From the NCBI GenBank assembly GCA_958009085.1, contig OY253687.1:620001-684000 (forward strand): DNA of 64,000 bases, in the 5' to 3' direction. Positions 54,312 through 59,796 of this stretch are shown here, piece by piece. Origin of the DNA: Protoeuglena noctilucae. Taxonomy: Eukaryota. The stretch's first letter is position 1. Every line of letters starts with the position of its first letter. The translations under genes and the position numbers were made by a program. The notes under the pieces are model-generated. The model did no database searches. It was given only the letters and a program-made list of their open reading frames with translations, and was not told where the DNA came from.

Positions 54312-56045
54312 CTAGTTCTCCACTACAAGGTCCACGCTCGGAGCGCCGATGACCCACTCGAGCCCCAGCTTCGCGGCTGCGGCGTCTAGCGCCTGCGCCA
54401 CCGTGAAAGGGTCCGTGTGCCCGATGGACGCACCCGCGAAGACCTCCAGGCCTCCAAAGTCCGACGCTTGCACGGTCAGCTTCCCACGGCTCACCACCCG
54501 GACCCACACGGGCTCCCACGGCACCCCCGCGGCCCTGGAGCCAGTCCCGTCGGCTGCGCCGAGGTTGAGCACTCCGACGTTGAAGCTCCGGGCGCCAAGC
54601 TCGTCGATGAGACCCCTCAGCACCGCGTGCAGGGCCACGGCCGCGGGCGACGCGAGGGCGTCCGCCAGCACAGAGACCTCCATGTCCTTGTAGGGGCATA
54701 GCGACACGAGCACCCACGCCCGCTGCACCCCTGGCCCCACGCCGGCGGGCCACGCGAGCTCCCGGGCGAGCCCCACGTGTCGGTGCGCTCGCACGAGGTC
54801 CGTGAAGTAGCAACCATCCCTTGGGTGCTCTGCCTCGTAAGCAGCACGCGCGGACGCGAGCTGGGAGGTCGCCGGGAAGGGCACACGTGAGGCCACCGTC
54901 TGCGCATGGCCGTGAAACTGACTTGCGCCCGCTCGGTGGAGACAGTTCTGCGGCAAGAGGCGGTTATGCTGTAGTAGTGGTGGAGGCAAGCAGGGCGTCG
55001 GTACGAGCTGTGGGCAGCGGGGGGTGTGCAGCCTTGTGGGTGTCGTGGCCAAACACTCACCCAGAGGAGGAGGGCGTGTCGTGCGTCGGGGTCGGCCTCC
55101 ATGGCCTTAAGGAACCACTGGCGGCTCGCCTCGAACAGGTCTCTGCGGATGATAGAAGCTAGAATGTCACAGGAAAGGGTACTGGAGGGGACTAGTGACC
55201 TATGTGCAAAGGGCGCACTGTGCTCACATGACGTTGTCGCGGCTAATGTCGAGGGGGTCATGGTGCTGGAAGATGATGAGGCCGTGGCTGCCGGCGTATT
55301 TGAACAAATTGGACGCCGTCACGACCGATCCAACGTGGATGCGGCCCCAGGTGTCCTCCGCCGTCAGCTCCTCCCATTTGCAGAAGTCACTGGCAGATGG
55401 CGGGGACACAGGTCGGGTCAGGGAAGGCGCGCAGGCAGAGGGCAGCGGGCCTGCGTAGCACATTCGCTTGGCTGCTCACCAGTTGGCGCCATGGTCCGTG
55501 GGATCGGTCACGTGCCCCGCGGCCTTGAAGTTCTGGGGCTTACTTCCTCGCGCCTGGTTGAACCACACTTGCGTGTGCAGCACCTTGTTGGTCACGCTCA
55601 CGACCAGCTGCTCGCTCGGGGCGCCATACTTGGCCGTCAGCGCCTTGCCCGGCCTCGCGATCCCCTGCGGGACCAGGACGGCGGATTCGGTCCCATCCGG
55701 CGGTAGACCGCTGCCAGAACTGATCACCGACGCAGCTGCTTTACCGGGACCGAATCGATGCGAAAGATGCGGTGAAAGGCCCGGCCATCCCGAGTGCTCG
55801 CCGTGGAGCCGCTCTGCTGCCTGGCAGCGAGGTCGAATATATTCATGCCGGGGCTGCGATGACGAGAAGGGTCAGGTGTCAAGGAATGTGTGGCGATATC
55901 GGGGCTGGATCAACGCAGCGCGTCATTTTAGTGCCTGCTCTGACAACGCATACCTGCAGCTGATGGCAGTGATGCTTGAGCCGCCTTCCGCATCGCCCGC
56001 GCGTACAGATAGCTTTGTTGTGAGCCTACGTTTGCTGCAGGACAT
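54312..56045 (-). CDS. Uncharacterised HIT-superfamily (GalT/Apa-like, HxHxQ) nucleotidyltransferase/hydrolase; start uncertain (56045 or 55847)
   Basis: W|NCLHRAGASQFHGHAQ motif; DFC; WGRI..ASNLFKYAGSHGLIIF..HDPL; SLCPYKDME; SFNVG; SDFGGLEVFAGASIGHTDPF. Confidence 0.75.
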
Positions 56046-56211
56046 CTAGTTCAGTCCGCCTGTCCGCTGCACGATGAGTGCTCATTTATCCAGCCCGGTC
56101 GCCGCACCATGCGCTGTGACGGCGCGAGCATGCTGTTGGGCATCAAGACCTGCATATGGGACGCATCATGTGGCTCATCCGTTCCCATCGCGGGGTGCGG
56201 CGCCCCGGGGC

Positions 56212-58176
56212 ATGGTATCCACGTGCTTGCGTGCCGTTCGGGAGCCTGCGTCGAGAAGCAGCCCGCAGAAGGGCGCGCGCGCGAGCGAGGATGAGGGCGG
56301 CCACAGCCACGGACAGGCCCACGCGCACGGGCACGAGCATAAGCACGCCCACACGCATGATGAGGGCCACGGCCACAGCCACGACCACGACCACGACCAT
56401 GCTCACAGCCACAGCCACAGCGGCCATGACCACAGCCACGGTCATGCACACAGCCACGGCCATGCTCATAAATTCAGGGCCCAGGCAAGTGTCACTTTGT
56501 GGAACTGGGCGCTGCTCCTGACGTGTGCCGCTGCAGTTGTGACATCGCCACCGCTGAGCGGAGTCCCCTTGCCGCAGGCGTGGGTGGCTGGTAGTCGCAA
56601 CGCGGTCTTGCCCAGAGGAGCTCTGGACGGCAAGGTGCTGTTCCTCGACGCCATGACGGCTGGGATGGCGGGAGACATGACGCTGGCGGCTTTGCTGGTG
56701 AGCCCCATGACACACCGCAGGCGTTGCTAGTCCCATGCAGCAAGGCTGACGGTCAAGGTGGCCATTGATGTTACCAACCATGATTCCTGGTGGTGATGGC
56801 ACCTTGGGCGGCCTCATGATAACCCCGCCATCGCCAGGCCTTATGGATGCGCTTGAGTCGCCTTACTCGCCTTGGCGCCCACAGGACCTCGGCGTTCCTC
56901 TGGACGTTGTCCGCACCGGCTTGGACGCTCTGAAGCTCGGTGATTTCGACTTGAACGTCACCCAGCGCTCCCACTCTGGCATCGTCGCGCCCTACTTCTC
57001 CGTGGTCGAATCGAAGGTGAGCGATGCAGTGAACTGAAGACACTCAATGGTTGGCCATCTCATGTAACGGTCTGGGTCCATGGAGACACCTAGAATTCCT
57101 GTAGCACGTGTCTCTCGCGCTGCTCCAATGCGGGCCGGACCAACCTGTTTTTCATGCGAGTGGCCGTCGGATGCCCAGGCAGGCCCGGCGCTTCAATACA
57201 CACTCGTCGACGCCCTCATACGCCCTCAGGACCCCGTGTTCCGGGACTGGCGCGCCATCAAGCGGATCATCGGGGACGGTGTGCAGCGGGGGGGCGCCCT
57301 CACACCTGGTGCGGCCATGCTGGCTCTCGATGCCTTTGGGAAGCTCGCGGTGGCCGAGGCCGCATGCCACGGCCTGCCCGTCGACGACGTCCATTTCCAC
57401 GAGGTGGGTGCGCGTGCTGAGTGCGGCACACCTTTCTCCTGCACTCGCGAAAGCGCCGTGGGCTGGGCTTTGCTTGCGCAGTCGAGTCGCCTGTGGCAGG
57501 CAACGTCGGCGCGACCATCACTTGTGCTCTCTGGTACCCGAGTGCACAACGATCGCATCTTGTCACTTGCCCCCACATCGTGTCGCATCACAGGTGGGCG
57601 CGGTGGACTCGATCGTTGACATCGTTGGCGTGGCCATCGCCGTAGATTATCTGGCACCCCGCGAAATCTGGGTCAGTCCCCTGCCCATGGGACGTGGCAT
57701 CATCCGCGGTGCAGCACACGGGCCGCTCCCCAGGTGCGGAGCGCAAGCGTGGTCCACATCCACGCCACGCCACGCCACCAGGCGCCCCTCCAGGACGGCC
57801 CTTCCTTAGCCATTGCTTGCTGCAAGTCTTACCGCCCCGTCTGTCCTGCGTGGCGTTGGCCACTACAACGTTGCGCCTGGCTGGCCTCAACAAACCCGTG
57901 CTTGTGTTGCGTCGCAGCCCTCCGCCCGCCACGGTCGGGGTGCTCGCCGGGAGCGGCATTCCCACGTTCGACGCGGGCGTGGATGGCGAGTTCGTGACCC
58001 CGACGGGCGCCTGCCTGGCTGCGGCCCTGGCGGGGGGCCGTGTGGCGCGGTGGCCATCGCTGGTCGTCGACCGGGTGTCCTATGGCGCGGGCACCAAGAC
58101 CTGGCCCGACCGACCCAACCTGCTCCGGGTCGTCGCGGGGACCGCAGCGGGGGAAGTCAAGGGCCGCGGAGCTTGA
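56212..58176 (+). CDS. larC: LarC (DUF111) nickel-pincer cofactor Ni-insertase, N-terminal domain only, with an N-terminal His-rich tract; start uncertain (56074 or 56212)
   Basis: LFLDAMTAGMAGDMTLAALL|DLG; FGKLAVAEAACHG..VDDVHFHE|VGAVDSIVDIVG; AHGPLP|SPPPAT; GEFVTPTGA; YGAGTK...PNLLRVV; TGA at 58174-58176. Confidence 0.9.
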
Positions 58177-58379
58177 GAGTGCCAGTAAGGGAGTGGGCAG
58201 TAGGAATGTGACCTGGTCGTGACCGACTGTGACCTTCCTTGCCCTTTGCGATCGCTAAGGAGTCTCATTAGCTCATTTAAAGCAGCTGCTCGTCTTTCTT
58301 CAAGCCATGAGGGTGCGCCACGTGCAGTCTCTGATCACTGACGCGGTGCACCCTGACCCTGCATATGGAAACTCACGCG

Positions 58380-59646
58380 TCAGCCGCAGGCGCAGAGGCG
58401 GTGGAAGTTGGGCCTCTTCGCCTCCCTGTCCGACTCCTGGAAAGCCTTGGGGTTGCCCGCGGCGTCCACAGACACGAGGCACATGGCGGGCGACCCGGTG
58501 CGCCCCACCGACCCCGACACGTACCCCGGGGCAGCAGCGTCCTCCACGCGCTCGCACCCGGCCTCGCAGTTAAAGTGCCGCGACAGCTCGTTGCAGGTGT
58601 TGACGGAGGCCATGCCCCGGGGAGAGAACGTGAGGCTCCCGCACACTTCCCGACACGCCTTGCCCACGTCGCCCTTCACAGCCTGCACCCCCGCTGGGAA
58701 CGCCGGGCCGTTCTCCGCTGGGTCTCGCGGCCGAGCATCCTGCGGAAGGGAAGCGTGGCAGACGTGCGCTGTCATGTGCACGACGCCCCGGGCACCGCGG
58801 GGGAAGGAGCAAGCAAGGCCTTGCCTTGGAGAAACAGTGTTTGTGGGAGCGCTCGATGTAGTCGTTCTCGTGCGCGGTGCTCCTCGCGTGGACGCGGCAC
58901 CGGTACGTGCAGAACTCGAAACGGCTGCCCCAATCGTGACGCGACTCGGTCCTGGGGCCGAGGCAAAGCACGCGTATCGTGCCGCAGCCAGTCGAGACGG
59001 GTGCTGTTGATGCCACTCCGTCATGGGTCCCTGCGCAACTCACCGGAGCTGTGTGAAGGAAGACCACCACTTCTCCACGCCCGACCCAGGGGCCATGCAA
59101 CACGATACGCACGCCTCGTGGGTCTCGCAGCAGTCGTCGCTGTCCGCTCGGCCCGTCCGGCAACGGCTGCAGTCGAATTGGGTGCCGCGGGCACAGCAGC
59201 CGGTCTGAGAGACGCGGGGAGACGCGGGGCAGAGCCCAAGTGAGAACCACAGCGAGCGAGAGGGCCGCGAGCTCGCGCGTGGGCATCCTGGGCACCTGCC
59301 AGTCGATGTCCCCACGCGAGCACAGGTATCCCTTGTCGTCCGTGACCTCCGACGCTCCGCTCGCGGTGGTCTCGCACGTGTTTGGAAACACTGCAGTTGC
59401 GCGCGTGGTTTCCCGGCGATGAGGAGGAGCGCACGCACGTTGGCGTCACGCAACGCAATCTCATGCATGAAAGCTGCGTTGGACCAACCGAAACCGCCGC
59501 GGAATGCGAGCGCGCGGACCTGCGGGATCCCCGTAGTACTTGGGGCGTGTCGCCTGGGCCAGCGCCCGCTCGGAGGCCGCCTGGGACGCCAGCGATGCGC
59601 CCACGAGGCCGAGGATCAGCGCCGCCCGAAGCGCCCGCCCCGGCAT
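58380..59646 (-). CDS. SPRING1/C12orf49 (UPF0454)-like Cys-rich secretory-pathway protein
   Basis: Signal peptide MPGRALRAALILGLVGASLA; CETT..VTDDKGYLC; TGCC..FDCSRC..CCETHEACVSCCM; CRVHARSTAHENDY; plant-type Cys-rich C-terminal domain ending RLCACG*. Confidence 0.8.
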
Positions 59647-59796
59647 TCCTCCGAAAGCCCGCGCCTCACTAGCTGCGAGCTCTACTCCCTGCCGACTCTC
59701 GTTCGTTTCGCGAGGTTGCAATGGCAGCTGTGTCTGGGGTCGCAGAGCAATTCACCGCATTTTTCGAGAATGAGCGCCCTGCGTGACGCTGCAAAT

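Follow-up and report, generated by a model that had tools for sequence, protein, structure and literature searches.

The 64,000 nucleotides of Protoeuglena noctilucae DNA analyzed here (GenBank assembly GCA_958009085.1, contig OY253687.1, positions 620,001 to 684,000; referred to as the window, with position 1 as its first letter) carry an expressed, six-exon nuclear gene for LarC1, the N-terminal domain of LarC. To our knowledge, LarC is the only biological cyclometallase. The product has a leader, a His-rich tract, and a LarC1 domain with a conserved catalytic pocket, but the LarC2 domain that is fused to LarC1 in its closest bacterial relatives is absent. The algal gene may encode one subunit of a LarC that is split into two genes, with LarC2 encoded separately.

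The LarC1 gene is transcribed and spliced

An earlier note, made from the letters of this DNA, had placed the LarC N-domain motifs on spliceosomal exons and concluded that the gene is nuclear and not a bacterial contamination. An initial gene model with the start that the note gave, 56212, was an open frame that ran through exons 56212-56697, 56885-57016, 57230-57403, 57594-57733, and 57918-58176. Between 55900 and 59400, 41 to 56% of the sampled words were present in four RNA runs from one marine metatranscriptome study, and 100% were present in four runs from a second study, the kind of which is unrecorded and which were treated as DNA. Contigs were mapped from the RNA runs X1 to X3 and from run X5 (treated as DNA); all RNA evidence stems from a single study. 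The assembled transcript covers 56030 to 58255 on the plus strand: contigs from X1 and X2 extend from 56030/56033 to 58254/58255 and contain five joints, and coverage by X3 is partial. The four GT-AG introns of the initial model (borders 56697/56885, 57016/57230, 57403/57594, and 57733/57918) were indeed found as exact joints in all three RNA runs, and none of the LarC1 splice joints was found in the DNA run X5.

The first exon of that model, however, had to be corrected in two respects. It hides an additional GC-AG intron of 93 nucleotides (56485..56577, plus strand), which was also removed in three out of three RNA runs; the joint was mapped at 56481->56575, with 5 ambiguous letters, and the borders read cag/gcaagt ... 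ccgcag/gc. This intron is in frame, and its retention would add 31 hydrophobic residues. Furthermore, the earliest ATG of the transcript is not at 56212 but at 56074, in frame and with a stop codon just upstream. Since the RNA contigs begin at 56030/56033 and this is the first in-frame ATG, a product of 411 amino acids from 56074 is more likely than a start at 56212. Residues 141 to 411 of the revised product are identical, letter for letter, to a database protein, P0001, which comes from a 1358-nt Logan contig. The G+C content at third codon positions (GC3) of the initial gene model was 79%, compared to 66% G+C in the window.

In the revised model, all six coding exons lie on the plus strand. 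Exon 1 (56074..56484) starts with the first AUG and encodes a leader of 74 residues, rich in Ala, Arg, Ser, and Pro, and then the His tract. Exon 2 (56578..56697) encodes a conserved W, the motif RN..LPRGA.DGKVLF.DA, and the GDM motif, whose Asp is the equivalent of D15 in the LarC of Moorella thermoacetica. The translations of the remaining exons match Pfam family PF01969 collinearly, at profile positions 20-59, 70-118, 120-163, and 165-236 of 375. The first of these matches is that of exon 3 (56885..57016). Exon 4 (57230..57403) contains the equivalents of R71, E104, H108, H116, H118, and E119, with HFHE at its end; exon 5 (57594..57733) contains VGAVDSIVD (equivalents of D124 and D128) and HGPLP (H160); and exon 6 (57918..58176) contains GEFVTPTGA (E187), YGAG, and PNLLR, followed by 15 residues and the TGA stop. 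The NCBIfam model for LarC1, TIGR00299, matches the last three exons, and the spliced product P0001 matches positions 1-236 of the 375 positions of PF01969 with an E value of 1.8e-66. Together with eukaryotic neighbors, the splicing seen in RNA demonstrates an expressed, six-exon nuclear gene of a eukaryote and no contamination, as the earlier note had held.

The product has a His-rich tract and no LarC2 domain

The earliest acidic residue of the leader (residues 1 to 74) is at position 57. From this composition and from the leaders of the orthologues, we infer a putative organelle-targeting peptide. The leader is followed by the His-rich tract (residues 75 to 133; 56296..56472, plus strand), in which 26 of 59 residues are His, in repeats of the HxH, HGH, and HDH type; a His tract ahead of the domain, reported from the letters alone, is therefore real. 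In the DNA run X5, the summed contig depth was about 30-fold higher at the His codons (56255-56405) than elsewhere (9505 versus 298), with many short contigs there. CAC-rich repeats of such a kind are therefore present at many places in this DNA data set.

The LarC1 polypeptide lacks the part of PF01969 that comprises the CTP-binding LarC2 domain (positions 237-375). All six frames of the 64-kb window were searched with a LarC2 profile made from the C-terminal domains of 85 bacterial LarCs, but nothing was found (best E value, 1.6, with filters off). A companion profile of the N-domain recovered every LarC1 exon frame with E values of 4e-27 to 2e-6. The earlier note had reported that translation ends just after PNLLR and that a convergent gene ends about 200 bp later, which leaves no space for LarC2. 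Indeed, the TGA stop codon at 58174-58176, 15 residues past PNLLR, is kept in the RNA contigs, the transcript ends at 58254/58255, and no downstream exons encoding LarC2 were found in it. The last long minus-strand frame of the convergent gene ends near 58380, roughly 200 bp past the LarC1 stop, and the 3' ends of the two transcripts are only about 8 nt apart (58255 versus 58263). Therefore, there is no space for more LarC exons at this site.

The catalytic pocket of LarC1 is conserved

Among solved structures, the sole match was the LarC of M. thermoacetica (chain 12bi; E value, 3e-34), and it covered residues 20-262 of 414, which is the LarC1 part. Residue numbers used here are those of PMC13510736, with the 18-residue tag offset that is seen in the 12bi alignment; this source, like PMC11770544 and PMC13524815 below, is cited from excerpts. 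Substitution of D15, R71, E104, H108, H116, H118, E119, D124, D128, H160, or E187 greatly lowers or almost abolishes the activity of Moorella LarC (PMC13510736). All 11 residues are present in the protein encoded in the window; H108, H116, H118, and H160 make up the His cluster, and the other seven belong to the acidic pocket. In an alignment of 20 sequences (A1), H116 is 90% conserved and the other ten are invariant or at least 90% conserved. The algal protein has no equivalents of H53, H70, H72, and H226. In PMC13510736, substitutions of H53 and H226 are described as moderately debilitating (about 60% activity) and H72A as being without effect, and the excerpt gives no result for H70. Conservation of the catalytic pocket speaks against a relic and also against a plain metal carrier.

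Compared to the full-length Moorella enzyme, a CTP-dependent nickel cyclometallase (PDB 12bi-12bl), the algal LarC1 aligns end to end and has the same His cluster and the same acidic pocket. In contrast, the linker and LarC2 are missing from the algal protein, a leader and a His tract of 59 residues are added, and its gene is a nuclear, intron-containing gene of a eukaryote.

Algal LarC1 originates from a Myxococcota-type LarC

The best genome matches were metagenome-assembled genomes (MAGs) of Thermoanaerobaculia and of Polyangiaceae/Myxococcales, with 47-51% identity, whereas Cyanobacteria had about 40%. A tree of the LarC1 domain with 95 rows was calculated (IQ-TREE quick search, with SH-aLRT as the only support value). 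In this tree, the 14 eukaryotic rows form one clade (SH-aLRT, 98), which spans chlorophyte (Mantoniella) and streptophyte-algal (Mesostigma, Mesotaenium) sequences. The clade lies within a larger one of 23 rows (SH-aLRT, 98), which also contains seven Myxococcota, one member of the Thermoanaerobaculia, and the bacterial fragment P0109. That a single conserved clade extends over chlorophytes and streptophyte algae suggests that the catalytic site has been under purifying selection for a long time. The three cyanobacterial rows are far off, across the tree. The earlier note had suggested a phylogeny against cyanobacterial and other bacterial LarC; an endosymbiotic origin was rejected by this tree and by the approximately unbiased (AU) test, in which the hypothesis of one clade of eukaryotes plus cyanobacteria failed (p 6e-5; 43-row subset). 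P0109 had been considered a eukaryotic LarC1-only protein, but the tree identifies it as a Polyangiaceae-like fragment.

The closest relatives of the algal protein are the LarCs of Polyangiaceae and other Myxococcota and of the Thermoanaerobaculia MAG (L001-L005, L007, and L008). These sister LarCs are of full length, and an N-terminal His/Asp tract is located right before the same L.RGAG.GK.LF.DA motif that follows the tract in algae. In contrast to the algal protein, they have LarC2 fused and no targeting leader, and their genes have no introns. The larB and larE genes are adjacent in L001, in the order larC-larE-larB, and larB precedes larC in L007. The earlier note had described the algal His tract as moved to the N terminus. 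Since the bacterial sister LarCs are already His led, the tract was inherited and not moved. At the level of sequence, these results demonstrate that algal LarC1 goes back to a Myxococcota-type LarC that was of full length and His led, and the locus provides a clean case of such a bacterial gene having become a spliced, leader-bearing nuclear gene. In one Polyangiaceae MAG (L004:6574-9789), the His-led larC immediately follows genes of the mevalonate pathway (diphosphomevalonate decarboxylase-like, GHMP kinase, and HMG-CoA reductase) and not lar genes.

LarC1-only proteins in other eukaryotes

With exon 6 as the query, 829 proteins were matched. Among the best 120, there were 31 whose alignment with a full-length reference is limited to its LarC1 part, and these include proteins of Mantoniella antarctica (UniRef), Mesostigma viride, and Mesotaenium endlicherianum (both EukProt). 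When 11 proteins were analyzed with Pfam, 10 stopped at position 234-237 of PF01969, and the remaining one, a bacterial control, covered positions 1-375. The eukaryotic orthologues share one layout: a leader, a His tract, the motif W ... RN.PL.RGAG.G..LF.DA, the domain, and an end 8-36 residues past PNLLR. A His tract is present in 10 of 12 orthologues with complete N termini and is missing from P0043 and P0121. Clusters of LarC1-only proteins at 90% identity have up to 66 members, on contigs of up to 2.7 Mb, and their sources are Tara, MMETSP, JGI, ENA, and Logan. The orthologues of distant algae end at the same stop position, some of them on contigs of Mb scale. In a scan of metagenomes for gene context, 1 of 80 loci (L081) contained a eukaryotic, intronless LarC1-only gene; its neighbors (Sec63/DnaJ, DDRGK, IFT52, and ribosomal L11) are not related to the pathway. 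The LarC1-only form is not a peculiarity of P. noctilucae. Judged by the sequence collections, it is the common eukaryotic form, found in many green algae, and its 14 eukaryotic rows in the tree form one clade.

We found no publication that describes a eukaryotic LarC1-only form; most of the subscription literature was outside the search, and absence from print is thus unproven. Genes of the lar pathway occur in some unicellular eukaryotes (PMC11770544). According to the excerpt of that paper, all eukaryotic LarA homologues belong to the GntE branch; an oomycete is given as the example, the excerpt names no algae, and the supplement contains no list of eukaryotes. A DUF111 transcript is briefly mentioned in one paper on diatoms. 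Look-ups in the ESM Atlas gave bacterial LarC clusters only and nothing further. In one protein of 450 amino acids (P0013, a single member from a 2.7-kb ENA contig), a truncated domain of the histone deacetylase family (PF00850, positions 2-201 of 298) is joined directly to a LarC1-only part; P0013 may have resulted from chimeric assembly or from the merging of two genes in gene calling, or it may be a genuine fusion protein.

Separately encoded LarC2 and LarC1 without LarC2

In 160 fetched loci, LarC2 was nearly always found in the frame of LarC1 or in an adjacent frame. A stop-closed LarC1 followed by more than 1 kb without LarC2 was found only at the prokaryotic loci L028, L063, and L072 and at the eukaryotic locus L081. 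Whole-genome searches with PF01969 revealed LarC2 on a contig different from that of LarC1 in two Chloroflexota, G002 and G003, with E values of 1e-52 and 1e-50. There, LarC1 covers profile positions 1-235 and LarC2 covers 237/240-374, and the unlinked LarC2 genes are located at G002:C121:7875-8291 and G003:C246:213-620. The LarC of Lactiplantibacillus plantarum is also encoded by two reading frames (PMC13510736). The algal LarC1 resembles that of both systems in that it ends just past PNLLR; in these bacteria, LarC2 comes from a separate frame or gene. It differs from that of L. plantarum in that the active LarC of the latter is a fusion produced by a programmed frameshift (PMC13510736), whereas the algal LarC1 has no linked LarC2. 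At the Chloroflexota loci L028:6780-9898 and L072:6374-9368, a gene of the aldehyde:ferredoxin oxidoreductase family directly follows LarC1.

The archaeal MAG G001 contained no LarC2 in a whole-genome search. Its order, which contains L063, is of the Thermoplasmatales type, and 41 genomes of this order were sampled (their completeness is unreported). PF01969 was found in 20 of the 41 genomes, in all 20 cases with the LarC1 part only (profile end at or before position 253), and the LarC2 part was found in none of the 41. The archaeal LarC1-only proteins have 240-273 amino acids. All five loci analyzed (L063:1841-7454, L161:2923-8669, L162:4020-7407, L163:6571-9998, and L164:4153-7547) have the gene order larE-larB-larC1, with a gene similar to that of deoxyhypusine synthase just upstream. 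The order looks like it has a nickel-pincer system that is free of LarC2 and perhaps serves the synthase-like enzyme. The archaeal and algal proteins have in common that they consist of LarC1 only, and the archaeal genomes searched were without LarC2. However, the archaeal proteins are located elsewhere in the LarC tree, they have no His leader, and their genes are in a larE-larB-larC1 operon beside the deoxyhypusine-synthase-like gene and NikR. The synthase-like gene is of the NF002699 type, a family that uses NAD. NikR is encoded downstream at two of the archaeal loci, and HypA and a Mrp-type ATPase are encoded upstream at one.

Stand-alone LarC2 proteins of 97-312 amino acids were searched for in a word index with the LarC2 of L001, and none of the 63 matches was labeled eukaryotic. 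This result was a false negative, as an exhaustive search later turned up a LarC2 of Chlorokybus. The exhaustive search gave 6614 matches; among the 150 listed, eight had no LarC1 part and an N-terminal extension of at least 30 residues. One of these, P0344, is a stand-alone LarC2 of 209 amino acids from an EukProt gene model of the green alga Chlorokybus atmophyticus. The N-terminal 53 residues of P0344 are basic, Ser rich, and without similarity to LarC1, and residues 55-194 match the LarC2 crystal chain 6bwo of L. plantarum (E value, 6e-29). In a LarC2 tree, the rows nearest to P0344 by path are Polyangiaceae and a Thermoanaerobaculia MAG, with no starred branch there; algal LarC1 likewise has these lineages as its sisters. 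A second stand-alone LarC2, P0349 (210 amino acids, on a 33-kb contig, NCBI and ENA), has an N-terminal extension of 60 residues rich in Ala and Ser and is nearest to an Armatimonadota row.

A search for LarB among proteins of more than 291 amino acids gave 3443 matches, was swamped by bacterial ones, and had no match labeled eukaryotic among the 120 listed. Two LarB-like proteins, P0187 (383 amino acids) and P0189 (395 amino acids), have a hydrophobic and then Arg/Ser-rich N terminus that resembles a eukaryotic signal or transit sequence, and they reach higher bit scores than is usual at such identity. Both are possibly eukaryotic forms of LarB.

A proposed LarC split into two genes and its alternatives

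With a stand-alone LarC2 in a green alga and with bacterial precedents, a two-gene LarC, of which the gene in the window encodes the LarC1 subunit and a separate gene encodes LarC2, is the best explanation, although we consider the chances for and against it to be evenly balanced. Of the two options offered in the earlier note, LarC2 encoded elsewhere or a repurposed Ni-binding protein, the first thus gains indirect support. In such a system, the leader would import LarC1 into an organelle, and the His tract would collect Ni(II) and pass it to the His cluster. The acidic pocket of LarC1 would hold nucleotide-activated pyridinium-3,5-bisthiocarboxylate, and the LarC1 domain would make the bonds of nickel to carbon and sulfur in the nickel-pincer cofactor. 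Activation with CTP, which is the step of LarC2 in bacteria, would be done by the separately encoded LarC2 protein, and the activated intermediate would travel from there to LarC1. A similar division of labor is known from bacterial molybdenum cofactor synthesis, where MogA and MoeA divide nucleotidylation and metal insertion. The resemblance to MogA/MoeA and Cnx1, in which the two steps are on separate proteins or on fused domains, is an analogy and not a homology, since folds, metal, and cofactor are all different from those of LarC; LarC is also compared with Cnx1 in PMC13510736.

Several findings weigh against a split LarC. The window contains no LarC2, the only eukaryotic LarC2 seen is from another species, Chlorokybus, and LarC2 was not seen in any species in which a LarC1-only protein was seen. 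For the LarC2 of Chlorokybus, there is a single and possibly incomplete gene model from a single species, no LarC1 was found for Chlorokybus, and the placement of P0344 in the LarC2 tree is without starred support. Moreover, the length, flexibility, and composition of the linker between LarC1 and LarC2 affect activity (PMC13510736), which indicates that tethering of the two domains helps. No LarB, LarE, or cofactor-using enzyme of green algae was established in this analysis. Finally, the archaeal order with LarC1 and no detectable LarC2 makes a LarC1 that works without LarC2 a real alternative. Such an insertase would nickelate a P2TAD-like adenine-dinucleotide precursor to give a cofactor of the nickel-pincer adenine dinucleotide type, or it would release nickel-pincer nucleotide (NPN). 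We regard this as possible but clearly less probable than a split LarC. It is consistent with LarC1 in 20 and LarC2 in none of the 41 archaeal genomes, obtained with a search that was sensitive enough to detect the Chloroflexota LarC2 at E values of 1e-50 to 1e-52, and with the conserved larE-larB-larC1 and synthase-like genes of five out of five archaeal loci. P2TAD, which carries AMP, is reported to be turned into cofactor by the LarC of L. plantarum (PMC13510736, citing Vucko 2024), and a nickel-pincer adenine dinucleotide is reported as a cofactor in ornithine cyclodeaminases (Desguin 2025, cited in PMC13524815). However, the archaeal LarC1-only genes and the algal clade are unrelated. The algal clade is nested within full-length LarCs of the Myxococcota type, and its truncation is therefore independent of the archaeal one. 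Also, at least one green alga, Chlorokybus, has a stand-alone LarC2. A more specific version, that the organelle-targeted, His-led algal LarC1 works like the archaeal proteins without LarC2 and CTP and nickelates an AMP-retaining precursor, with the resulting nickel-pincer adenine dinucleotide replacing NAD in some algal enzyme, is a more tentative proposal still.

LarC1 is even less likely to have been repurposed as a nickel-binding protein or metallochaperone, whose His tract and His cluster would store Ni (or Zn or Co) or deliver it, for example, to urease or nickel superoxide dismutase (Ni-SOD), without any pincer cofactor. Loss of the substrate-activating domain would fit such a role, and the long His tract is reminiscent of the His-rich tails found in nickel chaperones. 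No LarB, LarE, or LarA of a green alga came up in this analysis, with the LarB search being uninformative, and the eukaryotic LarA homologues placed only in the GntE branch by PMC11770544, with an oomycete as the example and no algae named in the excerpt, are in line with this as well. On the other hand, D15, R71, E104, E119, D124, D128, and E187 show little or no variation across the eukaryotic clade. These residues line the substrate pocket and not the metal site, and one would not expect their retention in a protein that merely carries metal. P0043 and P0121 keep the LarC1 domain without a His tract, and a eukaryotic LarC2 exists (P0344). The missing LarC2 half could also mean that a bacterial gene was transferred and is now a relic in decay, or that the sequence is a bacterial contaminant or an assembly artifact, but this is hardly credible: five introns are spliced in three RNA runs and kept in the DNA run, and the RNA contigs are free of introns, which excludes carry-over of DNA. 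The neighbors are eukaryotic, the frame is intact with a GC3 of 79%, distant algae share the stop position, in part on Mb-scale contigs, and the catalytic residues are conserved.

Current structural work leaves open how the two domains of LarC cooperate (PMC13510736). Natural LarC1-only proteins, conserved from prasinophytes to streptophyte algae and arisen independently in archaea, offer a direct test of LarC1 as a self-sufficient insertion module and of the travel of an intermediate between free proteins. The nickel demand of marine picoalgae is usually ascribed to urease and Ni-SOD. The algal LarC1, with orthologues that are common in marine metagenomes, points to possible nickel-pincer chemistry in abundant marine picoalgae. 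If LarC1 produced a dinucleotide cofactor without LarC2, an organometallic Ni-C cofactor would take part in the plastid or mitochondrial metabolism of abundant marine phytoplankton.

Genes flanking LarC1

Pfam searches with the long frames between about 50.6 kb and 64 kb of the window identified SPRING1-like, L7Ae, and RNase PH genes as neighbors of LarC1, and no Lar-related family was among them. The convergent gene is a Cys-rich, SPRING1-like gene on the minus strand (58263..59755; PF10218, E value, 6e-12), for which contigs with CT..AC joints define four introns. Upstream, a divergent gene on the minus strand (55500..55881) is covered by RNA contigs and has an intron at 55664-55743; its frames matched no Pfam family. 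Its transcript starts about 150 bp from that of LarC1, and the spacing of genes is thus very compact on both sides.

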